64,000 nt of DNA from Candidatus Woesearchaeota archaeon (GTDB taxonomy: Archaea > Nanobdellota > Nanobdellia > Pacearchaeales > GW2011-AR1): NCBI GenBank assembly GCA_964408235.1, contig CAYOYN010000002.1, positions 44,459 through 108,458 of the forward strand, in the 5' to 3' direction. Position numbers and translations under genes: made by a program. The notes under the pieces were generated by a model. That model was given only the letters and a program-made list of their open reading frames with translations, did no database searches and was not told where the DNA came from. This document shows positions 563-60,368 of this stretch, one piece after another. Every line of letters starts with the position of its first letter. The first letter of the stretch is position 1.

Positions 563-637
563 GCTCCCGTAGCTCAGCCTGGATAGAGCATCGGACTTCT
601 AATCCGAGGGTCGTAGGTTCAAATCCTATCGGGAGCG
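563..637 (+). tRNA. tRNA-Arg (anticodon TCT)
   Basis: Cloverleaf folds by hand: acceptor GCTCCCG/CGGGAGC, D arm GCTC..GAGC, anticodon stem TCGGA/TCCGA with loop CTTCTAA, T arm GTAGG-TTCAAAT-CCTAT, discriminator G. No encoded CCA. Confidence 0.85.
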
Positions 638-723
638 TTAACAAGGATTTGAACATCCTGAAGTGAGAAAGTCACTTCAGTCCCTCAAACTTTTCCAAGT
701 CTTGAAGAATCCTATCGGGAGCG
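622..723. repeat. Direct repeat of tRNA-Arg(TCT) 3' end: AATCCTATCGGGAGCG at 622-637 and 708-723, with a hairpin at 658-680
   Basis: 16/16 nt identity seen directly. Between the copies lies a perfect 9-bp inverted repeat, CTGAAGTGA-gaaag-TCACTTCAG. Confidence 0.85.
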
Positions 724-736
724 TTTTAGAGTTGAA

Positions 737-1027
737 CTAAAAGATATCGCTAAAAGTTCTACAAAACTGAATTTTGGCTTTTTCCAATTCCTTTTTTCCT
801 TCTAATGTTAGCGAATAGGTTATTGTTTTGCCTTCTTTATTCTCTTTTATTAAACCATTTTCTTTTAGTTGTTTTAGTGCAGGGTATATTGTTCCAGGAG
901 AAGGCTTGCAACCCTTTCTTTTTTCTAATTCTAATGCTATCTCTTGTCCGTGCATTGATTTTTTAGAGATTATAAAGAGTATTAGGAATGAAAGAAAACC
1001 TCTCATATCACAATATGATTTATCCAT
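737..1027 (-). CDS. PadR-family winged-helix transcriptional regulator
   Basis: 96 aa with a PadR-like core: HGQEIALELEK...SPGTIYPALKQLKENGLIKE. Confidence 0.7.
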   Translation of the reverse strand: MDKSYCDMRGFLSFLILFIISKKSMHGQEIALELEKRKGCKPSPGTIYPALKQLKENGLIKENKEGKTITYSLTLEGKKELEKAKIQFCRTFSDIF

Positions 1028-4602: not shown

Positions 4603-4652
4603 GATATCTTGATGTTCAAAGAGTTTAAAAAAGGTCTCTCGTACTTATTTTT

Positions 4653-5014: not shown

Positions 5015-5923
5015 TTAGAAATTGATCTTTTGATGTTTAATCAAATTAGACCATTCCTTATAATATTCTAATGCTTTTTTATCTATCTCGCCAGGGCTTA
5101 GAATTAATGCAGGCATTTTTTCTGATTGAGCTTTCTGTAGCGTAGAGACTAAATCTTCTAAAGTTATCTTTTTCTTATCTTTTACTGTTAAATATAGTTC
5201 TTGAGCGCCTAAATTTGTATTTAATTTTATTTTTGCGCTAAACTCTTTCTTTTTTGATAGGATTTCTTTTATGACTTCATATTCTCTTTCAGATAAGATT
5301 TTTTTTACATTATCTAAGAATGTGGATGACGTTTCTTTTTTCAATTTTTCCTTTACTGTTGTCTTTTCTTGAATTGTCTTTTCTAGTTGAATTTCATTCA
5401 ATAATTCCTTTGTTTGATCTTTTTCTACTTTTTTTTCAATTTCCTTAACTTCTTGTTTTTTAGGGGAAATTATTTTTTCGATTAACTCTTTTGTTTTATC
5501 GTTTGATAATGTATGAATTTTCCAAAAAGTTTTCTCTTGACTATTATCTATTATTTTTACAGGTATTGCAAAGTCTTTTATGCTTCTTAACGCCACCCGG
5601 ATTGCAGGTTCTTGTTCTGCATCTTCTAAAATTTCATTTTGTTTTAATAATTTAAATGCTTCTTTTTCTTTATGGTTTAAATATTCTGTAAATCTTTGTA
5701 ATTGTTCTTCTTGGCCCGGAATAAAATATAGAGGTGAGCCTCCTACTCGCATACTGCTTAATTTTAATTTTTGTTCTCCTACCAATTCTGACATAAATGC
5801 TGCTGTAAATATATTATTTTGACCTATTATGCTAGCAACTCTTACAGGGAATTCAGGACCTCTTTCTTGGATTACTTTAATAATTCTATTTTTTGTTTCT
5901 AGAACTTTCTGCATATCAGGCAT
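5015..5923 (-). CDS. Hypothetical protein with an N-terminal winged-helix-like domain, a Lys/Glu-rich linker and a C-terminal helical domain
   Basis: 302 aa; family not recognised. Not TFE, which is found elsewhere in the window. Confidence 0.4.
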   Translation of the reverse strand: MPDMQKVLETKNRIIKVIQERGPEFPVRVASIIGQNNIFTAAFMSELVGEQKLKLSSMRVGGSPLYFIPGQEEQLQRFTEYLNHKEKEAFKLLKQNEILEDAEQEPAIRVALRSIKDFAIPVKIIDNSQEKTFWKIHTLSNDKTKELIEKIISPKKQEVKEIEKKVEKDQTKELLNEIQLEKTIQEKTTVKEKLKKETSSTFLDNVKKILSEREYEVIKEILSKKKEFSAKIKLNTNLGAQELYLTVKDKKKITLEDLVSTLQKAQSEKMPALILSPGEIDKKALEYYKEWSNLIKHQKINF

Positions 5924-5963: not shown

Positions 5964-6476
5964 TTAAGGCTTTAACCAAGATACCTCGTAGTATAAAACA
6001 TCATTTTCATCATCAACTATGGCTATAAGGAGTTTTTTCTTAGTTGAATGGGCTACTCGGTTCTTTGCAGCAAAATCGTGCCATGTATGTGGCTCTGATT
6101 CTCTAACTGCATATGCTAACCATAATGCATGATCTTGGCCGAATTGACTGTTTTTTTTATAAATTCGAAAATCTGCTCCGAATTTTAGGGCAGTCTTTAC
6201 TATGTATCCTTTTTCTCTTAGATTTTCAAAAACAGAGAGTTTTGTTTCAATTCTTTTGTCATTTTTCTTTGCTAGAGATATTGCTTTGTTAAAATCAATT
6301 TCTTTATTTTTGAAGTATAATGTTAATTTCTTTTTATTTTGTAAAAATAATGCTTCTATCCAAGAGTATTCTATTCTATCTCTTACTTTCTCCCCAAATT
6401 TAGATTTTTCATATAATGAAAATGCATCGCTAGAAGTTGAATGTATTTTCTCGCTTGTGATGTGTGCGGTTATCAT
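5964..6476 (-). CDS. endA: tRNA-splicing endonuclease catalytic subunit
   Basis: GYIVKTALKFGADFRIYKK...H...ALWLAYAV matches the EndA catalytic-domain motifs (catalytic Tyr/His/Lys). Confidence 0.8.
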   Translation of the reverse strand: MITAHITSEKIHSTSSDAFSLYEKSKFGEKVRDRIEYSWIEALFLQNKKKLTLYFKNKEIDFNKAISLAKKNDKRIETKLSVFENLREKGYIVKTALKFGADFRIYKKNSQFGQDHALWLAYAVRESEPHTWHDFAAKNRVAHSTKKKLLIAIVDDENDVLYYEVSWLKP

Positions 6477-7547: not shown

Positions 7548-10007
7548 ATGAAGACCGTGAACTTTTCTACGATTGATAAAAAATGGCAGAAAGAATGGGA
7601 AAAGTCAAAGATCTTTGAGTCTAAAGAAGACCGTAAGAAGGAAAAATATTACGTTTTAGAAATGTACCCCTATCCTTCAGCTCATGGATTGCATATGGGC
7701 CATGCATTCAATTATACTATAGGAGATATTGTTGCAAGATTTATGAAAATGAACGGTAAATCAGTTCTTCATCCAATGGGTTTTGATAGTTTTGGGTTGC
7801 CTGCAGAAAACGCTGCAATAAAGGAAGGAACTCACCCAAGAAAATATACTGATGTTGCAATAAAAAGATTTATTGAACAACAAAAAGCTTTGGGGTTGAG
7901 TTACGATTGGTCTAAAAAAATACAAAGTCACGATCCTAACTATTACAAATGGAATCAATATTTCTTTTTGCAATTTTTAAAAAAAGGTCTTGCTTATAGA
8001 AAGGAATCTCCTGTTAATTGGTGTTCAAAATGCGAGAGTGTTTTAGCAAATGAACAAGTTCATGATGGAAAATGTTGGAGGCATAACGATACAGAGGTAA
8101 TTGTTAAAAATTTAGAGCAATGGTTCATTAAAACAACAAAATATGCTGAAGAACTTTTGAGGGATGTTGATTCTTTGGACTGGCCTCAAAGGATTAAATC
8201 TATGCAAAAAAATTGGATTGGAAAGAGCGAAGGAACTGAAGTATTATTTGAAATAGAAGGAGAAAAATGGCCTGTTTTTACAACAAGAGTAGATACATTA
8301 TTTGGAGTTACTTTCTTAGTTGTTAGTGCTCAACACTCTAAACTTTCTGAATTAGTCACTAAGGAACAGAAGAAGCATGTTGATGCTTTTTTGAAAAAAG
8401 TCAAAAGTACTAAACAAGAAGATATGGACAAAATGGATAAAGAGGGAGTATTTAGTGGGAGTTATGCTATTCATCCTTTGACAGGTAAGAAAGTCCCCAT
8501 ATGGATTGGAAATTTTGTAGTTGCAGATTATGGGTCGGGCATTGTAATGGCTGTTCCTGCCCATGATTCTCGTGATTTTGATTTTGCTAAGAAATATGAC
8601 ATTCCATTAATTCAAGTAATAAAGCCTGTTAAGGTAGAACATGCAAAAAGTAAATTATTTGAAGATTTTGGAATTTTAACTAACTCTCATGATTTTAACG
8701 GCTTGACTAGTGAAGAAGCTATAAAACATATTCAGGTGGTTTTGAAGGAAAGAAAGCTTGGAGGAGCAGTTACAAATTATAAATTGCGCGATTGGTTAAT
8801 CTCTAGACAAAGATATTGGGGAACACCTATTCCTATAATTTATTGTAATGATTGTGGTGTTGTTCCAGTTCCGGAAAAAGAATTACCTGTTTTATTGCCT
8901 GAGAAGGTTACATTTGGAAAGGGGAACCCTCTTCTTACTAATGAAAAATTCGTAAATTCAAAATGTCCTACTTGTGGTAAGAATGCAAGACGTGAAACTG
9001 ACACGATGGACACTTTTATGGATTCTAGTTGGTATTATATGAGGTTTACTGATCCAACTAATAATAAAATGCCTATAAGTGTAGATTGTGTTAATTATTG
9101 GATGCCTGTTGATTTTTACAGCGGTGGTGCAGAGCATGCTTGTATGCATTTAATTTATGCAAGATTTTTTACAAAGGCTTTACGTGATTTGGGTTATTCG
9201 AAAGTTAATGAACCATTTGTAAAATTGTTTAATCAGGGAATGCTTCATGGGGAAGATGGTTTTGTTATGTCCAAATCTAGAGGTAATGGGGTCGATCCTC
9301 TTGATGTTAGTAAGAAGTATGGTGCAGATACATTAAGGTTATTTTTAATGAGTGTTGCTTCTCCAGATAAAGATTTTACCTGGAGTACTACAGGTGTTGA
9401 GTCCATGTATAAATTTGTTAGTCGTGTTTGGGATTATGCTCATAAGGTAAATTTCGAAAAATCTTCTGCTAGAATTAAGCACAAGTTGAATAAAGGGATT
9501 ATCCAGATTGGAGAAGATATAAAAAATATTAATTATAATTTGGCTGTAATTAAGTTGCGTTCTTTATTTGATAGTTTTGAGGATCAAATAGATAAGGCGG
9601 ATTTTGCAACCTACTTACAGCTTCTTTCTCCATTTGCTCCGCATATTGCCGAAGAGTTGTGGCACAATGTTTTAGGATATGATACTTTTGTAAGTGATAG
9701 TGATTGGCCTATCGCAGATAAAAGTAAAATAAATGATTCAATTGATGTAGCCGAAGAAAGTTTTGAAAAAACGGTTTCAGATATTCAGAATATCTTAAGA
9801 ATTATCAAGGAAAAAGATGGTAAAGATGCTAAACATATTTATCTTTATACTATTCCTCCAGAAGTAAAGAACTTTGATAAAGAAATATTATCTAAAAGGC
9901 TCGGGATTGATGTAAGCATATTTGCTGTTAACGATAGTAAAAAATATGATCCCTCTTCTAAAGCAACTAAGGCAAAACCTGGAAAACCTGCAATTTATGT
10001 AGAATGA
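7548..10007 (+). CDS. leuS: Leucyl-tRNA synthetase, archaeal type
   Basis: Class I HIGH-type motif (PYPSAHGLHMGHAFNYTIGD) and KMSKS motif (VMSKSRGNGVDP). Confidence 0.9.
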   Translation: MKTVNFSTIDKKWQKEWEKSKIFESKEDRKKEKYYVLEMYPYPSAHGLHMGHAFNYTIGDIVARFMKMNGKSVLHPMGFDSFGLPAENAAIKEGTHPRKYTDVAIKRFIEQQKALGLSYDWSKKIQSHDPNYYKWNQYFFLQFLKKGLAYRKESPVNWCSKCESVLANEQVHDGKCWRHNDTEVIVKNLEQWFIKTTKYAEELLRDVDSLDWPQRIKSMQKNWIGKSEGTEVLFEIEGEKWPVFTTRVDTLFGVTFLVVSAQHSKLSELVTKEQKKHVDAFLKKVKSTKQEDMDKMDKEGVFSGSYAIHPLTGKKVPIWIGNFVVADYGSGIVMAVPAHDSRDFDFAKKYDIPLIQVIKPVKVEHAKSKLFEDFGILTNSHDFNGLTSEEAIKHIQVVLKERKLGGAVTNYKLRDWLISRQRYWGTPIPIIYCNDCGVVPVPEKELPVLLPEKVTFGKGNPLLTNEKFVNSKCPTCGKNARRETDTMDTFMDSSWYYMRFTDPTNNKMPISVDCVNYWMPVDFYSGGAEHACMHLIYARFFTKALRDLGYSKVNEPFVKLFNQGMLHGEDGFVMSKSRGNGVDPLDVSKKYGADTLRLFLMSVASPDKDFTWSTTGVESMYKFVSRVWDYAHKVNFEKSSARIKHKLNKGIIQIGEDIKNINYNLAVIKLRSLFDSFEDQIDKADFATYLQLLSPFAPHIAEELWHNVLGYDTFVSDSDWPIADKSKINDSIDVAEESFEKTVSDIQNILRIIKEKDGKDAKHIYLYTIPPEVKNFDKEILSKRLGIDVSIFAVNDSKKYDPSSKATKAKPGKPAIYVE

Positions 10008-18598: not shown

Positions 18599-19267
18599 AT
18601 GACTAAACATGCTTTTTGGCAGGCTCTTGTTTTTACGGTAATTGTGTTTTCTTTAGGGATGCTTTTGGGTTTTTTTCTGGAATTTGGTCAATCGCAATCA
18701 GTTTATTCTAACCTTGTTAGTTCTGAATTAAATATTCTTGATGAACAAATTCGTCAGAGAGTTATTTCAGATAATAATGTTTCATGCGAACTTGGTAAGG
18801 AAAGTCTTTTTTCTTTTGCAGATAAAATATATGATGATGCCATAGAATTAGAGGAAATTGATGGTACTGGCAGGTTAGGGGATCTTACGACATTGCATAA
18901 ACGGTATGATTTGCTTAGGACTTTGCTTCTTTTAGAAGCGGAGAAATTGAAACAAAGATGTGGGGAGGATTTCCATATTTTAACTTACTTTTATTATTAT
19001 AATTCAGATGATATTCAAACTTCTTCCGAACAAAATTATCTTTCAAGGCTATTATTTGATTTTAAAAATGATAATCCTGAATCTGTTATTCTTATTCCTA
19101 TTGCCATAGATACTGGCGTTGCATCTGTAGATTTATTAGTTGAATCTTTGAATTCTGACCAATATCCTGCAATTATAGTTAACAAAAATTTGGTTATTAC
19201 AGATATGGTTAGTTTAGAAGAATTATCTGAATTGGTGTTAAATGAAAGTGGCATTTATTCACCATAA
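18599..19267 (+). CDS. Hypothetical membrane-anchored protein
   Basis: One N-terminal TM helix; no recognised domain. Confidence 0.4.
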   Translation: MTKHAFWQALVFTVIVFSLGMLLGFFLEFGQSQSVYSNLVSSELNILDEQIRQRVISDNNVSCELGKESLFSFADKIYDDAIELEEIDGTGRLGDLTTLHKRYDLLRTLLLLEAEKLKQRCGEDFHILTYFYYYNSDDIQTSSEQNYLSRLLFDFKNDNPESVILIPIAIDTGVASVDLLVESLNSDQYPAIIVNKNLVITDMVSLEELSELVLNESGIYSP

Positions 19268-19298
19268 ATGATTTAAAGAGGTTTTTTGTATCATTTTT

Positions 19299-19895
19299 AT
19301 GGATTATATTGGTTTAAAGCACGATGATGGAAATTATGTCGAAGCAATAAAAGATGGAGAGATTGTAAGGGTTGAAGAAAAAATTGCTCTTCTCGAGGAT
19401 TTATTTATCTTAAGAAAGATTGGAGGCTCTCAAAATTCAAGTTCTGTTTCTCCGCCTTTGCAAAGTTCAGCAATTAAATCAAAAGAGCCTATTATTAAGA
19501 ATAGTTCTATTATGTCTGATTGGAAACACGGAAAATTTGGAGGTAAAAAAAACAATGCAGCCCAGGATTTAATCTCTAACTTCAATTGGGAGATCTCTAA
19601 AAATAGGAAGGCTAAAAATATGACTCGGTTGAAGTTGGCTCAAATGATAAATGCTACCGAGGATCAAGTAAAAATGTTAGAACTTGGAGAATTGCCTGCA
19701 GATGATTTTGTTTTGATTTCAAGAATAGAACAAGTATTTGGAATAAATCTTAGAAAAAACCCTGGTTCTATTGCACACGTTAGTCTTGCAGATTTACAAA
19801 AGAGAAATGAGGAAAAAAAGCAGGAAAGGTTTCAAACCAATGTCTTTAAAGATTCAACTAATTTAGCTGGAAACGATATAGAAATTTTAGATTAA
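19299..19895 (+). CDS. HTH (XRE/MBF1-like) domain protein
   Basis: Central HTH (RLKLAQMINATEDQVKMLELGE) resembles archaeal MBF1, but the N-terminal zinc ribbon is absent. Confidence 0.45.
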   Translation: MDYIGLKHDDGNYVEAIKDGEIVRVEEKIALLEDLFILRKIGGSQNSSSVSPPLQSSAIKSKEPIIKNSSIMSDWKHGKFGGKKNNAAQDLISNFNWEISKNRKAKNMTRLKLAQMINATEDQVKMLELGELPADDFVLISRIEQVFGINLRKNPGSIAHVSLADLQKRNEEKKQERFQTNVFKDSTNLAGNDIEILD

Positions 19896-32871: not shown

Positions 32872-34263
32872 TTGCTTATTTTTGATTACATTATGAATAA
32901 ATTAAAATGTGGCCTTGAAATACACACTTATCTTTTGACTAATGAAAAACTTTTTTGTAGATGTAATGCATCTCGTGAGAGGGGACTTGAGCCAAATATC
33001 TTGATTTGTCCAATTTGTACTGGGCAACCTGGTGCAAAACCTATGTCTCCTAATTTAGCTGCTATTGAAAAAGCTGTTAAGATTGCTTTAATGCTTGGGT
33101 GTAAGGTTAACGATGCAATGCCTTGGATGAGGAAGCATTATGACTGGCCTGACTTACCAAAAGGATACCAAAATACCATGAGTGGTGCTCATGCTACTCC
33201 GCTCGGAGTAAATGGCAAATTCGAAGGAATTACTATTGAAAGTATGCACTTGGAAGAAGATCCTGCAAGTTGGGATCCAAAAACTGGATCTGTAGATCAT
33301 AATAGGAGTGGTTTGCCATTAGTTGAAATTGTAACTGCTCCTGAATTTACTTCTGCGGACGAGGTTTATTACTGGGTTAACAAATTAGTTCATGCTTTGA
33401 ATTATCTGAAGGCAATTGACACAAATGCGGGAGTTAAGGCTGATGTTAATGTTTCGATAGTCGATCAAAATGGTAAACAAAAAACTGAAAGGGTCGAAAT
33501 CAAAAATATAACTTCTATTGAAGCTATGAAGTCTGCTGTTCTTTATGAATTTGATAGGCAGATCAAAGAAGGAAGTGTTCGTGAGACTAGAAGATACGAT
33601 GAAGCTAAGGGTATTACTATGAGGATGAGAGGTAAGGAAAAAGAAGATGATTATCGATTTATAGTTGATCCAGATTTAATGTCTGTAAATTTAAAGAAGT
33701 CTTTTATAGATGAACAAAAAAGGTTGATTCCTGAATTGCCAAGCGTTAAACTCGAGAAATTGATTAAGAAATATAAAATAGATTCTATTAATGCTTTAGT
33801 TTTAGCTAGGGATGTTGATATAGTCTCTTTTTTCGAGAAGGTTGCTGAAAAAGTGGAGGGTAAATTTGCTTTACCATGGGTTACTGTGGAACTTCTTAGG
33901 GTTTTGAATTATAACAATAAAAAATTATCTGAAGTTTCTATTTCCGTAGATCATTTCATTAGGTTATTGAATCTGGTTAAAGATAAGAAAATAACTGAAC
34001 TACAAGCTAAACAAATATTGAATAAATTTATTCCTGAAAGTTTTGACCCTTCTAAGACTGAAGGTAAAATTGAAAGTGAAAAAGAACTTGTCCCAATTAT
34101 TTTAAAAGTTTTGAAAGAACAAGAGAAAGTTGTAATTGATTATATTAATGGAGATATTAAGTCTTTTAATTATTTGATTGGGGAAGTTATGAAAGCTACT
34201 AATAGGCGTGCGGATTCCAATGTCGTTCGTAAATTGCTTGAAAAATTAATAAAAAACAAATGA
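32872..34263 (+). CDS. gatB: Asp/Glu-tRNA amidotransferase subunit B
   Basis: GLEIHTYL...KLFCRC...ICPICTGQPGAKP; both Zn-Cys pairs present. 463 aa. Confidence 0.8.
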   Translation: MLIFDYIMNKLKCGLEIHTYLLTNEKLFCRCNASRERGLEPNILICPICTGQPGAKPMSPNLAAIEKAVKIALMLGCKVNDAMPWMRKHYDWPDLPKGYQNTMSGAHATPLGVNGKFEGITIESMHLEEDPASWDPKTGSVDHNRSGLPLVEIVTAPEFTSADEVYYWVNKLVHALNYLKAIDTNAGVKADVNVSIVDQNGKQKTERVEIKNITSIEAMKSAVLYEFDRQIKEGSVRETRRYDEAKGITMRMRGKEKEDDYRFIVDPDLMSVNLKKSFIDEQKRLIPELPSVKLEKLIKKYKIDSINALVLARDVDIVSFFEKVAEKVEGKFALPWVTVELLRVLNYNNKKLSEVSISVDHFIRLLNLVKDKKITELQAKQILNKFIPESFDPSKTEGKIESEKELVPIILKVLKEQEKVVIDYINGDIKSFNYLIGEVMKATNRRADSNVVRKLLEKLIKNK

Positions 34264-34273
34264 CCTCACGAGG
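34261..34273. repeat. Partial copy (12/13 nt) of the tRNA-Arg(TCG) 3' end, 85 bp downstream of that tRNA
   Basis: TGACCTCACGAGG here versus TGACCCCACGAGG at 34359-34371 (the tRNA 3' end on the minus strand). Overlaps the gatB TGA stop codon. Confidence 0.7.
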
Positions 34274-34358
34274 TACTCGCTGATGGACATCATTGGTAAC
34301 TTCAAAACAAGCATATTTTGAAGTAATCCAACCTCTTCTCGGTTCGATTTAAATAAAA

Positions 34359-34431
34359 TGACCCCACGAGGAATCGAACCTCGATCACAGGATCCGAAGT
34401 CCCGTATTCTAATCCATTAAACTATGGGGTC
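34359..34431 (-). tRNA. tRNA-Arg (anticodon TCG)
   Basis: Reverse complement folds: acceptor GACCCCA/TGGGGTC, anticodon stem CGGGA/TCCTG with loop CTTCGGA, T arm CGAGG-TTCGATT-CCTCG, discriminator A. Confidence 0.8.
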
Positions 34432-34470
34432 TTAACTTTGCGAAGTGATTTGTTTTTTAAAACTATTGTA

Positions 34471-47891: not shown

Positions 47892-48725
47892 ATGAAAATT
47901 CAGTTTAATCCAAAAACTTTTTTTCTGTTTTCTCTCTTTCTTTTGATAGGAGTCACTTTTATTATTTACCCATTTACTGATTCTAGTAAAAGTATAAGAG
48001 ATTCATACGGTAATTTATTATTCAATCCTACTGAACCATCATTGGGTTCTATGGGGGGGCACTTGAATGCTCCTGGCAGACCTCATGATACAGAAGATAT
48101 TCCAGAGGGATGGATTCATAATGACTTTAAGGGAAATGTTTATGATACCCTAATAGTTCAAGGAAATAGGTTACATAATAACTTTCCTGGAAACCCCTAT
48201 CACACTTTAAGATATCCTCCCGGATACGAACATGTAAACAAACAAACAAGCCCTGATTATACTTATAGGGTAAGCCCGGAACCTGGGAGACATCAAGAAA
48301 AACCCCGACAATTACATAATAACTTTCCTGGAAGACCTGGAGATACTTTAATGTACGACTCTGGAAAAAAACATTATGACTTTCCTGGAAGACCTGGAGA
48401 TACTACCAGACATGAGCCAGATTATGAACATAGTAATTTCCCAGGAAATCCTTATGATACGGACTCAAACCCTCCGGGATGGAAACACAATGATCACGCT
48501 GGCCCGAGCCAAACTTCATCGTATCCTCCTACTTACGAACACAATAGTTTTCCTGGAAGACCTCAGGATACTAGGATGTTTCCTCCAGAATGGAAACATA
48601 ATGATAGACAGGGAAATCAATATGATACTCAGAGATTTCCTCCAGGAAGTAAACATAATAATAGTCCCGGCCCAAGTCAGACTTCTATGAATTGGCAATC
48701 ATCTCAAAACCCGCCTGGAGCTTGA
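47892..48725 (+). CDS. Secreted or membrane-anchored repeat protein with ~7 degenerate FPG(R/N)P-x-DT...PP-x-KHN repeats
   Basis: N-terminal signal/anchor helix, then repeats such as HNNFPGNPYHTLRYPPGYEHVN, HNNFPGRPGDTLMYDSGKKHYD, FPGRPGDTTRHEPDYEHSN, FPGNPYDTDSNPPGWKHNDH, NSFPGRPQDTRMFPPEWKHNDR. Rich in His, Asn, Pro, Gly, Tyr and Asp. Confidence 0.5.
   Translation: MKIQFNPKTFFLFSLFLLIGVTFIIYPFTDSSKSIRDSYGNLLFNPTEPSLGSMGGHLNAPGRPHDTEDIPEGWIHNDFKGNVYDTLIVQGNRLHNNFPGNPYHTLRYPPGYEHVNKQTSPDYTYRVSPEPGRHQEKPRQLHNNFPGRPGDTLMYDSGKKHYDFPGRPGDTTRHEPDYEHSNFPGNPYDTDSNPPGWKHNDHAGPSQTSSYPPTYEHNSFPGRPQDTRMFPPEWKHNDRQGNQYDTQRFPPGSKHNNSPGPSQTSMNWQSSQNPPGA
48170..48700. repeat. Tandem degenerate ~66-bp DNA repeats underlying the protein repeats
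   Basis: For example, ACTTTCCTGGAAGACCTGGAGATACT occurs twice (about 48318 and 48381). The repeats generate spurious ORFs in other frames at 48376-48690 and 48516-48698. Confidence 0.7.
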
Positions 48726-48762
48726 TTTTATATATCTATATAAATAAGATTTATTTTTATTA

Positions 48763-49875
48763 ATGATGAATAAAGACTTTTTTACCTGGGATAAATTAAT
48801 CATTATTTTATTTTTTGGTTTATTGGCTATGGTTATTATCGGCTTAATTAGTGGTAATAAAATTGAGAATCTTAAAATTGATGATAAATCATTTTTTACG
48901 CAAGGCGAATTAATGGAAGATCTTGCTAATACTTCTGTTAATATGAGTGATGCACTAGATGTTTTTAGATATGTTTTTCACAGGATGGAAGATGAAGTTA
49001 CAATATATCAATCTGAAAACAATCTTTACTTGAGATTTGCCGCCCATGGGAGAATATTTGGGGGAATTATTACTCTTGCTATATTGACGCGAGATGAGGG
49101 AGTTATTAGTCTTAGTTACATTGAAAGAAAAGAGAATCCTAATGAAGCTCCTGTTAGAGATTTTATTGGAGGGGGGAATTCATTTAATGCTACCCATGGA
49201 GTTATTGTTGAGAAACTGAATGATTGGAAATATCAAGCAACTTTTGAAAATAAAACTGTGATCTTTAATTTGTACAATCCTGGTATGAGTCCTCCAAAAA
49301 AAGCTAAATTATTGAAGGCTGAAGAATATGTTGGACCGGTTTTTGATGAATCTGGTATTGAAATGTATCTTGTTTTCAATAAAAATGTAAATAGATTATA
49401 TTTAATATTAAATGAGGATAGATATGTTAGAGAGCAATTTTTAGATATTGGAGAAGGTGTTTTAATCGGACACAGGACATCTTTTGCATTCTACAATGAT
49501 TCTGTAAACAATAGGAAAATATTGATTGGGGTTAGAGGAGAAAATACTATTCAAAACAATTGGTATGACGGGCCGCATGATCAGATGCCTGATAATTATG
49601 TGCATTACGGATATATTCCTAAATATTTAGAGTATCTGGAAGCAGCTTACCCGGAACTAAAAGGTAGAATGGACAAATATGGCCACTTTTTAGAGAAGGA
49701 TACTGGAAGAGTTGCTGTAGCGCCATATTATGTTTATTTTTATGAACAAGATTTATTGGATATTGTTTCTGCTTGTAAGAAAATGAAAGATCAATCCGAA
49801 ATGTATGATTGCATGACTCTGCAAATATATGACATTCCAGAAGAAAAACAATATTTAATGCATTATTACGAATAG
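48763..49875 (+). CDS. Hypothetical membrane-anchored protein
   Basis: 370 aa, N-terminal TM helix, Tyr-rich C-terminal region; no recognised family. Confidence 0.4.
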   Translation: MMNKDFFTWDKLIIILFFGLLAMVIIGLISGNKIENLKIDDKSFFTQGELMEDLANTSVNMSDALDVFRYVFHRMEDEVTIYQSENNLYLRFAAHGRIFGGIITLAILTRDEGVISLSYIERKENPNEAPVRDFIGGGNSFNATHGVIVEKLNDWKYQATFENKTVIFNLYNPGMSPPKKAKLLKAEEYVGPVFDESGIEMYLVFNKNVNRLYLILNEDRYVREQFLDIGEGVLIGHRTSFAFYNDSVNNRKILIGVRGENTIQNNWYDGPHDQMPDNYVHYGYIPKYLEYLEAAYPELKGRMDKYGHFLEKDTGRVAVAPYYVYFYEQDLLDIVSACKKMKDQSEMYDCMTLQIYDIPEEKQYLMHYYE

Positions 49876-53444: not shown

Positions 53445-54521
53445 TTAGTATGTGATCTCACCGCCGCCAAGCATAATTTTTGATTTGGTGTAGATGACTG
53501 CTGATTGGCCTTCTGCTACACCTTCTATTGGTTTGTTTAAAATTACTTTATTTCCTTTTATTTCTGCTTTATGTAGTTCTCCTAGGTGTCTTATCCTTAC
53601 TAATATCTTAGATGATTTTGGTTTGGCTGAAATATAGTTTATATCTTTAATTTTGAATTCATTTTTCTTTAATGCTGTATGATTTTCTGGTGCTACAATT
53701 AAAATGTTTTTTTTGAGATCTTTACTTGCTATGTAGATTTTTGACTTTACTTTATTTCTATATTCATTATTTATTTGAATGTCTTGATTTTCTCCCAATC
53801 TTTCTCCTATTGTATAAAACATCATTCCATTATGCTTTCCTACGATATTTCCTTCTGGATCTTTTATTATCCCTTGTTTATTTTTTATCTTTTGTTTAAG
53901 GAAGTCTTTTACATCTATATTTCCTACAAAACATAACCCTCTTGTACCTTGTCTATTCCAGTTTTGAAGATTGCTCTTCTTTGCAATATCTCTTACTTCA
54001 CTTTTTGTATATTCGCCTATCGGAAATAATGTGTGTTTAAGATCTTCTTGAGATAGGCCGTATAGAAAATAAGATTGGTCTTTTTTATTATCTTTTGGTA
54101 TTTTTAGATAGAATTTATTTCCTTTTTTTATTTTCTTAATGTAATGGCCTGTTGCTATAAATTGGCATCCAAGCTTTCTTGCTTCAAACCACAGATAAGG
54201 AAATTTTACTATTGTATTACAAGCAGAATCTGGATTAGGGGTTAAACCTCTTGCATAATCTCTAAACATCGGTTTTATTACTTGGTTTGTATATTCTTTT
54301 TCATAATTTAAGGTTATGAATTTTATCCCCAACATGCTTGCTATTTTTTGAGCACTTTTTCTATCTTCTATCCATGGGCATTCTCCCGTAATCTTATTTT
54401 TCTTTTCAGAGAAGCAACGCATAAAAGCTCCTATTACTTCGTAGCCTTGCTTTTGCAAAAGAAGAGCTGCTACGCTTGAGTCTACGCCTCCTGAGAGGCC
54501 TAATAATACTTTTTGTTTCAT
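53445..54521 (-). CDS. mnmA: tRNA 2-thiouridylase, MnmA type (PP-loop ATPase)
   Basis: PP-loop SGGVDSS and MnmA-typical Cys positions. 358 aa. Confidence 0.8.
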   Translation of the reverse strand: MKQKVLLGLSGGVDSSVAALLLQKQGYEVIGAFMRCFSEKKNKITGECPWIEDRKSAQKIASMLGIKFITLNYEKEYTNQVIKPMFRDYARGLTPNPDSACNTIVKFPYLWFEARKLGCQFIATGHYIKKIKKGNKFYLKIPKDNKKDQSYFLYGLSQEDLKHTLFPIGEYTKSEVRDIAKKSNLQNWNRQGTRGLCFVGNIDVKDFLKQKIKNKQGIIKDPEGNIVGKHNGMMFYTIGERLGENQDIQINNEYRNKVKSKIYIASKDLKKNILIVAPENHTALKKNEFKIKDINYISAKPKSSKILVRIRHLGELHKAEIKGNKVILNKPIEGVAEGQSAVIYTKSKIMLGGGEITY

Positions 54522-54560: not shown

Positions 54561-54611
54561 ACGTCCCCTGCTGGACTCGACTTGACAAAAGACGTCCCCT
54601 GCTGGACTCGA
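54561..54611. repeat. Perfect 20-nt direct repeat ACGTCCCCTGCTGGACTCGA (54561-54580 and 54592-54611); the second copy is the 3' end of tRNA-Asn
   Basis: 20/20 identity, 11-bp spacer. Seen directly in the sequence. Confidence 0.85.
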
Positions 54612-54665
54612 ACCAGCGACCCCGCGGTTAACAGCCGCGTGCTCTACCTGCTGAGCTAAGAGGAC
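54593..54665 (-). tRNA. tRNA-Asn (anticodon GTT)
   Basis: Reverse complement: acceptor GTCCTCT/AGGGGAC (one G-U pair), anticodon stem CGCGG/CCGCG with loop CTGTTAA, T arm GCTGG-TTCGAGT-CCAGC, discriminator G. Confidence 0.85.
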
Positions 54666-54895
54666 TTGAAAATAAGAGCCATTTTATGTTATTTAAATCT
54701 TGGTTTTATGTCATTTTTGATTAATTTTTATTTGAAATTTTATTTTTTAATTTTTTTAAGAAAATTTTCTATTATTTTTTCTCGACGATAAATTATTTAT
54801 CTAAAATTAAAAAATTATTTTTTTTGAAAAATTCTGCATAGTTTTAAATATAAGTTTGTATATTTTATTTTAAAGAGGTATATGATAGAGTGGCA

Positions 54896-58358: not shown

Positions 58359-60368
58359 TTATAGTTTCTGAATATAACCTGCTTTTGGTTTGAAAATATC
58401 TCCTGATTTAGAGAGTTGATTTATTGCATCTTCAATTTCTTCCTTTGTTAGCCTTTCTCCTATTTCTTTTTCTAATTCTATTGTAGGAATTAATTTGCCC
58501 ATTGATGCTTCTAACTTAGATATGGTATCTCTAACAACAATTATTTTATTTCTTTTTGAAGCGGGGATGCCTGTAGTTATTCTATCAACATCAAATGTTT
58601 GAGTCTCTTCGTCAAAACCTACTTGCATCATCGAATATTTTAATAGTTTTATTGCCCGTTTAGCGTCTTCTACTGCTACATAATTGCTTAATCTTATTTT
58701 AGCACAAGCTTCTGATAATCTAACTATTGCTTCTAATTGTCTTGCTGTAATTGGTATTGCCTTTACTTCTGAATTTCCAGATAGGGTTTTATTTCTTATA
58801 GAAATATAAAATTCTTTTATTTCTTCTGCAGCCTCATCTGTTAATTTAGGTTTTATTTTTCTTGCATGAGCTACATATTTTCTTAATAACATTGGAGGAA
58901 TTACATCTCTTTCAACTTGTTGTTTGTGCTCTTCTAGAACGTGAGAAGCGATTGCTTCATCTTGAGCCCTATTTGGCATATCCCTCAGTACAAAAATTAC
59001 ATCAAAACGTGAAAGTAGTGCTGGTGAAATATTAATTTGTTGAGGGATAGGAATTACTGGATCAAATCTTCCTAGCTTTGGGTTACCTGCTGCAAGAACT
59101 GAAGTTTCTGAACGTAATGTTGCTTGAATATTTGCTTTAGAGATTGTAACGGTCTGCTGTTCCATGGATTCATGCATAGTTGATCTATCGTGTTCATCCA
59201 TTTTTTCTATTTCGTCTATACACACAGTTCCTTTATTTGAAAGAACCATTGCTCCTGCTTCTAATGACCAACCCTTTAGGAATTCATCCTTTACAACTGC
59301 TGCAGTAAGTCCGGCTCCAGTTGCAGCTTTTCCTGAAACATAACGTCCTTTAGGAGCAATTCTTGAAACAAATTTTAGAGTTACTGATTTCGCTACTCCG
59401 GGATCTCCCACTAAAAGAACATGAATGTCTCCTCTTGTATTTCCGCCATCAGAACGTTTTTTCTTGACCCCTGAGAAAAGTTGTAATAGTATAGCTTCTT
59501 TTACTTCTTTAAAACCGTAAACACTTGGAGCGATACTGGCTGTTAGGCGTTCAAATGCTTGAGGATCTGAAGATATTTTTTTTATTTCAAGTTCATCTTT
59601 TTCATTTACTTCTAGATCGTCAAATGTTTCTTCTAAAGGGATTGCATTATTTGCTTCAATTGCCAGGTCAAATCTTGTAGATATTGAACCTTGTTGAAGA
59701 GGAACTGGAACTTCTTTTAATACTCCTATGATTTTTACTTTACTTCCAGGGGTTGTTCTATCTTCCATTTTTGGATCTACTAGGTCTTCTTTAAGAAATA
59801 CGTTCATTCTTCTTGGTTGTTCTCCTCCTTCTAAAGAGTCTGGAGATTCTTCAATAACTAATCTTTGGGCGTCAACCATTTCTTTAGATAATAATTTGAA
59901 TAAACCTTTACGTCCACAAGAACACCTTGAAGGTTCACGAAATTTTCTATCTATCTGTAAGACTGATAGAATGGCTCCGCAAGTAGGACACTCAAATCTT
60001 GCGTTTACTACTTGAGGTCTTACGTCTGAAGCTTGTCGGACTATCCCTTCTATAGTTATGAATTGATCCAGGTGTTTTGCTCTAATTTCTTTTATTTTTA
60101 TTTTTACTGAATCTGGAAGTGATGTAAATCTTATTCTTGGAGGTTTTGGTAAAAAACCTTGTTCTTCTAAACATATCTCTAAAAGGGCAATTATTTCTTC
60201 AGGAGTTTCTACAAGTTTTTCAGAAAGCATTGGAGAAAATTTAGATAATTGATGGAAATCTAATGGAACTACCTGATCATTTTTTACAGATCTAATTATG
60301 TCTTTTTTATTATTTTGGAAGAATTCTTTTGCTTCTTTTTCAAATTCTTGTTTCTTTCCAAGCTCCAT
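58359..60368 (-). CDS. mcm: MCM replicative helicase
   Basis: Zn finger (CPTCG...CSCG), Walker A motif GDPGVAKS, Walker B motif CIDEIEKM, the arginine-finger region, and a C-terminal wH. Confidence 0.9.
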   Translation of the reverse strand: MELGKKQEFEKEAKEFFQNNKKDIIRSVKNDQVVPLDFHQLSKFSPMLSEKLVETPEEIIALLEICLEEQGFLPKPPRIRFTSLPDSVKIKIKEIRAKHLDQFITIEGIVRQASDVRPQVVNARFECPTCGAILSVLQIDRKFREPSRCSCGRKGLFKLLSKEMVDAQRLVIEESPDSLEGGEQPRRMNVFLKEDLVDPKMEDRTTPGSKVKIIGVLKEVPVPLQQGSISTRFDLAIEANNAIPLEETFDDLEVNEKDELEIKKISSDPQAFERLTASIAPSVYGFKEVKEAILLQLFSGVKKKRSDGGNTRGDIHVLLVGDPGVAKSVTLKFVSRIAPKGRYVSGKAATGAGLTAAVVKDEFLKGWSLEAGAMVLSNKGTVCIDEIEKMDEHDRSTMHESMEQQTVTISKANIQATLRSETSVLAAGNPKLGRFDPVIPIPQQINISPALLSRFDVIFVLRDMPNRAQDEAIASHVLEEHKQQVERDVIPPMLLRKYVAHARKIKPKLTDEAAEEIKEFYISIRNKTLSGNSEVKAIPITARQLEAIVRLSEACAKIRLSNYVAVEDAKRAIKLLKYSMMQVGFDEETQTFDVDRITTGIPASKRNKIIVVRDTISKLEASMGKLIPTIELEKEIGERLTKEEIEDAINQLSKSGDIFKPKAGYIQKL

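Follow-up and report, generated by a model that had tools for sequence, protein, structure and literature searches.

Transfer RNA (tRNA) genes are classic landing pads of mobile DNA, and the known occupants of these sites are kilobase-sized elements which carry an integrase of their own. T-loop-type attachment (att) cores of tRNA-integrating elements were reportedly described by Williams in 2002. We know of no report of casposons from the archaeal lineages considered here. Casposons target tRNA genes and generate a target duplication of 14 bp, which can reach up to 35 bp and which is shared between tandem copies (PMC4779613). In the present work we analyse a window of 64,000 nucleotides from a Candidatus Woesearchaeota archaeon (assembly GCA_964408235.1, contig CAYOYN010000002.1, positions 44,459 to 108,458) and, within this window, the short structured spacer that separates the gene for tRNA-Arg(TCT) from a direct copy of that gene's own 3' end.

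To our minds the balance is even on the proposition that this spacer, at 640-707, is a small, non-coding and non-autonomous insertion module that targets tRNA ends, the second copy of the tRNA 3' end being the duplication generated by its insertion. A full-text search of the literature gave no description of such units. Positions given without a locus number are those of the window; comparative loci carry L numbers.

The repeat behind tRNA-Arg(TCT) and its empty sites

The initial annotation of the window reported that the last 16 nt of tRNA-Arg(TCT) recur exactly downstream and that a perfect 9-bp hairpin lies in between, at 658-680. Both observations hold, and the exact direct repeat, AATCCTATCGGGAGCGTT, in fact extends to 18 nt (622-639 and 708-725), that is, the last 16 nt of the tRNA and two flanking nucleotides. 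The features of the locus are as follows:

563-637, plus strand: tRNA-Arg(TCT), intact functional copy (ARAGORN; Rfam, 70.6 bits), identical in 10 assemblies
622-639, plus strand: R1, repeat copy 1, tRNA positions 58-73 (T-loop A58 to the discriminator) and 2 nt
644-654, plus strand: Y, AGGATTTGAAC, the module end nearest the tRNA, perfect inverse complement of the T-arm at 617-627
658-680, plus strand: hairpin 1, ctgaagtga/gaaag/tcacttcag, a perfect 9-bp stem (658-666 and 672-680) with a 5-nt loop
681-684, plus strand: conserved TCCC linker, present as GTCCC in 12 of 14 family members
685-707, plus strand: hairpin 2 region, tcaaacttttccaagtcttgaag, supported by family comparison
708-725, plus strand: R2, repeat copy 2, duplicated tRNA 3' end without function; the native TTTT flank comes next
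728-737, plus strand: degenerate second Y, agagttgaac

The tRNA gene calls of ARAGORN and Rfam span 562/563 to 637/638, with a TTTAAAA box approximately 26-32 nt upstream, and no T-run separates the end of the tRNA from the module. The Y motif, which the initial annotation had overlooked, forms an 11-nt perfect inverted repeat with the T-arm and is also found at +3 to +10 behind other tRNAs. The stem of hairpin 1 is invariant between the window and the related loci L014 and L016, and covaries across the wider group of related spacers that we term family A. Hairpin 2 is degenerate in the window; in relatives it is well formed, with compensatory changes, and its arms resemble the T-loop and the complement of the T-loop. 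The repeat reaches 31-33 nt in L014 and L016, where an intact second Y forms part of it.

A chance origin of the repeat was rejected: the 64 kb contain exactly two copies of the 16-mer, and no occurrences are expected from 100 shuffles with two mismatches allowed. A sequencing or assembly error, which the initial annotation had named as something that would remove the repeat altogether, was likewise rejected as an explanation, the same arrangement being present at 98% identity in 10 independent assemblies from different samples (ENA, NCBI and Logan).

The same pattern had been noted at two further tRNA genes in the window, and this we can confirm for tRNA-Arg(TCG) and tRNA-Asn:

34359-34431, minus strand: tRNA-Arg(TCG), intact (ARAGORN, Rfam)
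34274-34358, minus strand: 85-nt module of family C, consisting of Y, a T-loop-like copy, a hairpin, TACCA and a second hairpin
34349-34341, minus strand: Y of this module, aatcgaacc
34333-34325, minus strand: T-loop-like copy, ggttggatt
34324-34299, minus strand: hairpin ACTTCAAAA..TTTTGAAGT, followed by TACCA and the second hairpin
34261-34273, minus strand: copy 2, tRNA positions 61-73, 13 nt with one mismatch
54593-54665, minus strand: tRNA-Asn(GTT), intact (ARAGORN, Rfam)
54561-54591, minus strand: 31-bp insertion, an 11-nt filler (cttttgtcaag) and a 20-nt exact copy of positions 55-73 plus one nucleotide

Copy 2 of tRNA-Arg(TCG) lies 85 nt downstream of its tRNA, and the 20-nt exact copy of the tRNA-Asn end, at 54580-54561, begins only 11 nt past copy 1. 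The two other tRNA genes of the window, tRNA-Cys and tRNA-Met, have no such 3'-end repeat.

Orthologous loci, a comparison that the initial annotation had proposed, provide empty sites for all three tRNAs. In L013, whose glycyl-tRNA synthetase (GlyRS) is 89% identical to that of the window, an identical tRNA-Arg(TCT) is followed directly by TTTTTC and the same PadR gene, with no unit. In L293 (GatB 90% identical) tRNA-Arg(TCG) runs directly into the T-rich flank that is found after copy 2 in the window, and in L289, L290 and L292 (MnmA 79-83% identical) tRNA-Asn is followed directly by TTCTACTTATTTTATATACTAAAAAAA, the sequence that follows copy 2 in the window. Since the relatives have empty sites that carry the flank found after copy 2, the three duplications of the window are lineage-specific insertions, in each of which a spacer is accompanied by a duplicate of the tRNA from its T-loop to its 3' end. 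The suggestion that the adjacent PadR regulator and small open reading frame (ORF) are the remnant of an island does not survive this comparison; neither is enclosed by the repeats, and the same synteny is seen in L013, where the site is empty.

The two copies of the tRNA end have had different fates. In L003 and L010 a G-to-T change, which would break the C6-G67 pair, is found in copy 2 alone. In L014 (GlyRS 88% identical) a stem pair of the tRNA has changed and copy 1 follows this change; copy 2 retains the old base and has two further changes, three in all. Copy 2 decays in the same manner in L111, L097 and L137, with stem-breaking changes of the distal copy in the latter two, as in L014. 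Because the changes pile up in copy 2 and leave copy 1 intact, copy 1 is the working 3' end and copy 2 is a fossil.

This asymmetry also bears on the possibility that copy 2 is the true 3' exon of the tRNA and that copy 1 and the spacer are spliced out by EndA as an intron in the T-loop. The genome does encode EndA, intron-containing tRNAs are present in related contigs, and removal of 86 nt in any register would restore the tRNA. However, a scan of all registers in both geometries across nine units revealed no consistent bulge-helix-bulge motif, the introns of relatives sit at or near the canonical anticodon-loop position, it is copy 2 rather than copy 1 that gathers the stem-breaking changes, and the insert is missing behind the same tRNA of the empty-site relative. 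We have rejected a T-loop intron, the probability of which we take to be very close to nil.

Both of the other insertion sites show further peculiarities. The GatB stop codon, TGA (34261-34263), lies within the reverse complement of copy 2 of tRNA-Arg(TCG), and at the empty site in L293 the end of GatB abuts the tRNA itself. The intergenic site between tRNA-Asn and MnmA is a rearrangement hot spot in relatives: in L292 (approximately 9560-9977) tRNA-Asn has an anticodon-loop intron and an HNH-like ORF (..CANCHRETH, recognised by eye) is inserted downstream, and in L291 (7599-9908) 2.6 kb with a methyltransferase and a further ORF replace tRNA-Asn, of which only ..AGGACG and the flank are left.

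Module families, their distribution and their conservation

The spacers fall into families that are common to different tRNAs and different genomes. Family A, which includes the spacer behind tRNA-Arg(TCT) in the window, is laid out as linker, GGATTTGAAC, A, hairpin 1, (G)TCCC, hairpin 2, GG and repeat, and is found at Arg, Ile, Glu and Leu tRNAs. We collected 15 distinct members and aligned 14 of these. The structure predicted for this family by RNAalifold comprises hairpin 1, the base of hairpin 2 and a helix (GGATT/AATCC) that closes the whole; double compensatory changes occur in 7 of the 15 family A pairs (6/7 for hairpin 1 pairs) of the RNAalifold alignment. A covariance model of family A finds members solely beside tRNAs in 0.97 Mb, one of them in the window, and gives no matches in 76 viral loci. 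Family B has the form ..CCTTGGGTTTCG-hairpin-..GACCCA|CAAATCC, and family C, to which the tRNA-Arg(TCG) unit of the window belongs, comprises Y, a T-loop-like copy, ACTTYAA..TTRAAGT, TACCA and a hairpin.

While the spacers are shared, the repeat corresponds in every case to the tRNA beside which it lies. In L122 an identical stretch of 21 nt adjoins different repeats in the Gly and Arg units, and the hairpin and TACCA of the tRNA-Arg(TCG) unit agree at 30/31 positions with those of a unit that follows a different, intron-containing tRNA (ending CCTGGTGGGCTCA) in the unrelated locus L190, this being the sole similarity between the L190 locus and the window. Because one spacer family occurs with many tRNA-specific repeats, the duplication looks target-derived. 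Furthermore, Y is not always fitted to the local T-stem, as is seen from its imperfect match at tRNA-Ala in L161, and it therefore appears to travel with the module. Units are also found in 100%-identical tandem arrays (83 nt x2.4 in L124 and 95 nt x2.2 in L101, with further examples in L127, L130 and L167), and mixed arrays and nested insertions are present in L206, L137 and L172.

These observations make it very unlikely that plain local duplication, by replication slippage or by error-prone break repair at a highly transcribed tRNA gene, accounts for the units in general. The identical tandem arrays do show that slippage or unequal exchange takes place at these loci, and the tRNA-Asn case, with its 20-nt repeat and 11-nt filler, resembles a simple repair footprint. 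Plain duplication nevertheless leaves the shared spacer families, Y, the compensatory changes and the constraint described below unexplained, and comparison with the flanks gave no support for the spacers being copies of local sequence, as a simple tandem duplication would have them. Because the same spacer is found at different tRNAs, this explanation survives for the tRNA-Asn case only.

We estimated how common the pattern is by locating tRNA genes with ARAGORN in loci retrieved through GlyRS and taking the longest common substring between the 3' end of each tRNA and the 100 nt downstream. By this measure the 3' end recurs for 3 of the 5 tRNAs in the window and for 9/38 tRNAs in GlyRS-anchored loci of Nanoarchaeota, Woesearchaeota and Pacearchaeota metagenome-assembled genomes (MAGs), against 0/10 bacterial tRNAs, in keeping with the earlier view of a recurring genomic habit rather than chance. 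In a pooled bacterial and viral control of 49 tRNAs the matches are confined to one phage tRNA cluster, and in internal controls, which compared the 3' end with the sequence upstream and the 5' end with that downstream, the longest common substring is at most 9 nt. A metagenome scan anchored on the T-arm and Y pattern yielded 120 loci, in which about 9 of some 95 neighbouring tRNAs outside the pattern selection have end-anchored copies, including Gly, Pro, Glu, Cys, Ala and Leu tRNAs. The modules are a lineage-wide feature of genomes of the Pacearchaeota/Woesearchaeota type (Nanoarchaeota/Nanobdellota).

The length of the exact repeat has its mode at 17-21 nt (26 of approximately 56 cases), with a second class of 27-39 nt that includes the linker and Y. 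The repeats begin in the T-loop, at tRNA positions 55-61 in about 50 cases and mainly at 55-58, and the start-to-start periods are mostly 80-100 nt. Kilobase-distant copies of tRNA ends, or kilobase-scale repeat pairs, were found in none of 22 related MAG loci.

Mirror-image units occur at tRNA 5' ends, where a copy of tRNA positions 1-10 or 1-14 lies directly behind the promoter; next come a hairpin and an inverse copy of the 5' end, and the complete tRNA is last:

L016 9841-9879, L028 4607-4698, L030 9237-9299 and L034 1418-1474: 5' mirror units at tRNA-Cys
L184 977-1165: 5' mirror array at tRNA-Ser, 43-nt unit x4.4 at 100% identity
L132 (28-nt copy), L098, L159 and L134: further 5' mirror units

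In two different MAGs, the trailers of a tRNA-Arg (L033 7062-7085) and a tRNA-Cys (L017 9512-9540) share GGATT(T/C)GAAGTTATGAGAA, with no second tRNA copy detected at either; these motifs may be remnants of modules from which the repeat has been lost.

The module of tRNA-Arg(TCT) is strongly conserved. At 4-fold degenerate sites of GlyRS the window is 58-59% identical to L013 or L014 and 49% identical to L016, and the segment from Y through hairpin 1 to TCCC is identical at 38/40 nt in the window, L014 and L016, both differences lying in the loop; a binomial estimate gives P ~1e-7 for such identity at p = 0.58. Divergence is far greater in hairpin 2, in the linker and in the second tRNA copy. 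The GC content of the units is 0.41-0.45, against 0.19-0.30 in neighbouring intergenic DNA.

Such constraint would also be compatible with a host element that rides on the tRNA gene, either a small RNA (sRNA) released from the trailer by RNase Z or a structure for processing, termination or antisense insulation, the duplicated tail being a side product of the spread or recombination of these modules. Consistent with this are the 38/40 identity despite near-saturated synonymous sites, the stems that stay paired through compensatory changes, the raised GC content, the lack of a T-run between tRNA and unit in the window and an RNase Z-like gene nearby. G-U pairs are frequent in family B, whose fold is the better by 5-14 kcal/mol on the tRNA-sense strand, and dicistronic tRNA-sRNA precursors, which RNase Z cleaves, and 'mobile' sRNA genes have been described in Nanoarchaeum equitans (PMC3491384).

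Nevertheless, we consider a host element unlikely. The unit is dispensable, being absent behind the identical tRNA in L013, and has been gained or lost at all three tRNAs of the window. Inspection revealed no C/D or H/ACA boxes, and Rfam 15 gave only tRNA and 5S matches (window at the gathering threshold; 18 loci in E-value mode), with none for the unit at 540-780 even at E<=10. A C/D or H/ACA guide aimed at the T-loop through Y was rejected on inspection, since a C box is lacking, the spacing does not fit and the position of the kink-turn (K-turn) is occupied by a perfect hairpin. Hairpin 1 is nearly pure Watson-Crick (168 Watson-Crick, 3 G-T, 8 A-C and 1 other pair in 22 members), which is unusual for a helix under selection as RNA, and in 14/15 members of family A the antisense strand gives the slightly better fold, a weak bias that is partly due to the constant TCCC/GGAA. 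The 3' untranslated region of a convergent gene was rejected as the cause of this bias, the neighbour being convergent in only 9/15. T5 and A5 runs occur in the units at the expected frequency, neither avoided nor strand-biased, which is uninformative on co-transcription, and the minimum free energy z-scores of the units are modest, at -1.7 to -2.2.

Possible mobilisation of the modules

The window and the neighbourhoods of the arrays were searched for an enzyme that could move the modules. No integrase, transposase or Cas1 domain was found by Pfam in any ORF of at least 80 aa in the window, all of which are housekeeping genes or lack an assigned function, and none is among the 25 commonest Pfam families of 125 ORFs near arrays, which are dominated by RNase Z, SecDF and methyltransferases. 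PolB was found neither in the window nor among the near-array ORFs. LAGLIDADG_3 domains occur in 3/125 of the ORFs near tRNA arrays. Scans of IMG/VR with the 18-mer, a 19-mer, the inter-unit junction and tRNA+Y patterns returned only phage tRNA-Arg(CCT) genes or chance matches; a matching viral or plasmid attachment site (attP) was not found in these scans.

Larger insertions do occur at tRNA ends of these lineages. L194 (2502-7390) has the appearance of a classical integrated element: an insertion of 4.8 kb separates a tRNA-Val gene from a 47-nt copy of the 3' half of that tRNA, from the anticodon stem to the end. The ORF of 408 aa beside the tRNA matched nothing in Pfam, PDB or PHROG; it may encode a highly divergent integrase. 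In L172 (85-1513) tRNA-Glu is followed by 1.2 kb of cargo (a truncated ORF and an NYN-domain gene), a degenerate repeat copy and a family A unit; the latter contains a nested insertion and lies next to a perfect distal copy of the tRNA-Glu 3' end, the whole forming a mixed cassette array. In L145 a 54-nt 5' repeat flanks 1.5 kb. Given these larger repeat-flanked insertions, tRNA ends are general insertion hot spots in these lineages.

The initial annotation compared the duplication at tRNA-Arg(TCT) to an att-site scar with no element. In its full form this explanation supposes that a kilobase-sized virus or plasmid integrated through tyrosine-recombinase crossover at the T-loop and that deletion later removed nearly all of it, so that attL, element arms of about 70 bp and attR are what is left. 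The position and extent of the repeat, from T-loop to 3' end, are those of a T-loop-type att core, all three tRNAs have an unoccupied attB in relatives (L013, L293 and L289/L290/L292), and the larger insertions of L194, L145 and L172 show repeat-flanked elements in the same lineages. Integration at tRNA 5' or 3' termini is documented in archaea (PMC3293823), and partial tRNAs build up at reused sites in other systems (10.1101/2020.12.28.424599).

Against this, deletion would have to leave the same colinear remnant of 66-70 bp in three species, with equivalents at many tRNAs, and the remnant is strongly constrained rather than decaying. One spacer family occurs with different repeats at different tRNAs, a pattern not predicted by an attP core borne by the element. 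At tRNA-Asn the perfect repeat of 20 nt is accompanied by no more than 11 nt of filler, the spacers in the window (70, 85 and 11 nt) are not element-sized, the 22 MAG loci contain no kilobase-scale repeat pairs, and the searches above found no integrase in the window ORFs, among the commonest near-array families or as a match to the L194 ORF. We judge a scar of this kind to be distinctly improbable. The part of the original suggestion that stands is that of a by-product of insertion or recombination at the tRNA 3' end, with empty sites in relatives. The spacer itself does not look like a passive relic; where the initial annotation saw no room for an element, the 70 bp are a conserved structured module that is found behind many tRNAs.

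If the spacer is indeed an insertion module, its insertion may be envisaged as follows. The module would consist of a short linker, Y, two hairpins and the TCCC motif, and its insertion would duplicate the target from T-loop position 58 to just past the discriminator. The intact tRNA would stay on the promoter side, and the spare, functionless copy (708-725) would carry the original downstream flank. Y, carried by the module, may aid the recognition of tRNA T-loops, and the repeat would derive from the target, through a staggered cut of about 18 bp (mode 17-21 bp), rather than from the module. Mobilisation would take place in trans, by a separate enzyme, in a step for which the hairpins are presumably required. 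The same process with other module families would have given rise to the tRNA-Arg(TCG) and tRNA-Asn duplications. Thereafter, modules would accrete into mixed arrays, take nested insertions and be lost again, and unequal recombination between repeat copies would amplify them into identical tandem arrays; amplification, accretion, nested insertion and deletion could thus produce both the arrays and the repeats of 27-39 nt that include the linker and Y.

More tentatively, and as a possibility that we would not put higher than that, the units may be previously undescribed, Nanobdellota-specific miniature mobile elements. These would home to tRNA ends by guide pairing of the inverse T-loop motif (at 5' ends, the inverse acceptor), be inserted by a staggered-cutting enzyme that duplicates about 18 bp and build repeat-insert-repeat arrays like those of clustered regularly interspaced short palindromic repeats (CRISPR), and some families may in addition be expressed as small RNAs linked to tRNAs.

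Several points weigh against mobility. The mobilising enzyme, a free form and a donor copy were not found, the IMG/VR scans being negative, and inspection of the unit ends showed no clear terminal inverted repeats (TIRs). The tRNA-proximal linker is variable in both length (2-9 nt) and sequence. In many loci the repeats run for 27-39 nt through the linker and Y, so that a fixed stagger of about 18 bp needs secondary events. The tests of strand asymmetry conflict between families and give no single answer as to which RNA or strand is under selection, and the 38/40 identity would also fit an RNA or DNA element of benefit to the host. Finally, most comparative loci come from the pattern-anchored metagenome scan and are a biased sample.

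Outside the window, approximately one tenth to one quarter of the tRNA genes sampled from these ultra-small archaea carry structured, conserved units of less than 100 bp, arrayed between copies of the tRNA end. If these are mobile, they represent a new minimal form of tRNA-targeted element and imply a trans-acting integration machinery in DPANN (Diapherotrites, Parvarchaeota, Aenigmarchaeota, Nanoarchaeota and Nanohaloarchaeota) archaea, and their repeat-insert-repeat logic bears on ideas about the origin of CRISPR-type arrays and on casposon insertion. Should they be expressed, they would constitute a new class of RNAs linked to tRNAs. In practical terms, the partial tRNA copies and long trailers to which the units give rise can lead to errors in tRNA annotation and in the prediction of islands and prophages in these MAGs.

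Genomic context and comparison with known systems

The window belongs to an AT-rich archaeon of the DPANN type and contains the housekeeping genes aIF-1A, aIF-2 beta, S17e, TBP, TFE, MCM, EndA and KH/Pno1. Relatives identified through GlyRS carry the labels Nanoarchaeota, Woesearchaeota or Pacearchaeota, and the MnmA protein of the window is 100% identical to that of a Candidatus Pacearchaeota MAG (NCBI). There are five tRNA genes (ARAGORN, Rfam), in none of which is CCA encoded, and in all five a TTTAAA(A/T)A box begins approximately 30 nt upstream of the first tRNA nucleotide. In N. equitans tRNA transcription is near-leaderless, with box A 26 nt upstream of the start (PMC3491384), and the box-to-tRNA spacing in the window would fit a similar mode of transcription. 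No RNase P RNA was seen within the 64 kb. The positions of these features are:

530-562, 1345-1377, 4620-4651, 34432-34470 and 54666-54700: upstream-box regions of the five tRNA genes
5964-6476: EndA splicing endonuclease

MnmA (53445-54521), a tRNA 2-thiouridylase, is of the bacterial type, yet lies in an archaeal genome, and its synteny is kept across related Pacearchaeota/Nanoarchaeota MAGs. Conserved ORFs of 302, 277, 370, 222 and 198 aa without a Pfam match lie at 5015-5923 (minus strand), 47892-49875 (plus strand) and 18599-19895 (plus strand); the 302-aa ORF, which adjoins EndA, has no PHROG match either. The MCM gene of L291 (1-760) has an intein bearing a LAGLIDADG domain, whereas that of the window (58359-60368) has no intein.

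Among described systems, the att duplications of elements that insert at tRNA genes (those of tyrosine integrases, of SSV/pNOB8-type elements and of tycheposon islands) are alike in leaving an intact tRNA and a partial 3' copy that starts in the T-loop. They share with the units empty sites in relatives, reuse of the site with several partial copies and larger cargo insertions (as in L194, L172 and L145). In contrast, the units described here are 11-95 bp long, non-coding and hairpin-rich, with no integrase inside or adjoining. They have tRNA-specific repeats within each spacer family, form 100%-identical arrays of whole units and have a constrained spacer.

Casposons and CRISPR integration have in common with the units a long target duplication from a staggered cut, the use of tRNA 3' ends, tandem insertions with a shared duplication between them and growth in a repeat-insert-repeat fashion by reuse of the site. 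Unlike casposons, the units are shorter than 100 bp and have no recognisable TIRs, and no Cas1 or PolB was found in the window or in the near-array ORFs. A long target duplication of fixed length would be expected of casposon-type insertion; the duplication of the units has its mode at 17-21 nt and a further class at 27-39 nt.

Miniature inverted-repeat transposable elements (MITEs), repetitive extragenic palindromic (REP) sequences, palindrome-associated transposable elements (PATEs) and integron attC sites are similarly short, non-coding, non-autonomous and defined less by sequence than by secondary structure, are mobilised in trans and can form arrays. The units differ from these in being tied to tRNA ends, in being flanked by tRNA-end copies of 17-21 nt and in their inverse T-loop motif. 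No partner transposase or insertion sequence, REP-associated tyrosine transposase (RAYT) or IntI was identified for the units (for IntI, within the window). Unlike a MITE, family A is not dispersed, its covariance-model copies being found only beside tRNAs, with one in the window. The likeness to integron attC cassettes, as structured, strand-biased and arrayed units, may be regarded as conceptual only.

Finally, the tRNA-sRNA genes of N. equitans (PMC3491384) differ from the units in that the latter lack C/D or H/ACA boxes (by inspection) and an Rfam match, have a 9-bp hairpin rather than a K-turn and have a duplicated tRNA 3' end at their flank, a feature with no described counterpart among the N. 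equitans sRNAs. The two are alike in belonging to the same phylum-level lineage and in placing a structured unit directly after a tRNA, from which release by RNase Z is possible, and for both mobility has been suggested.

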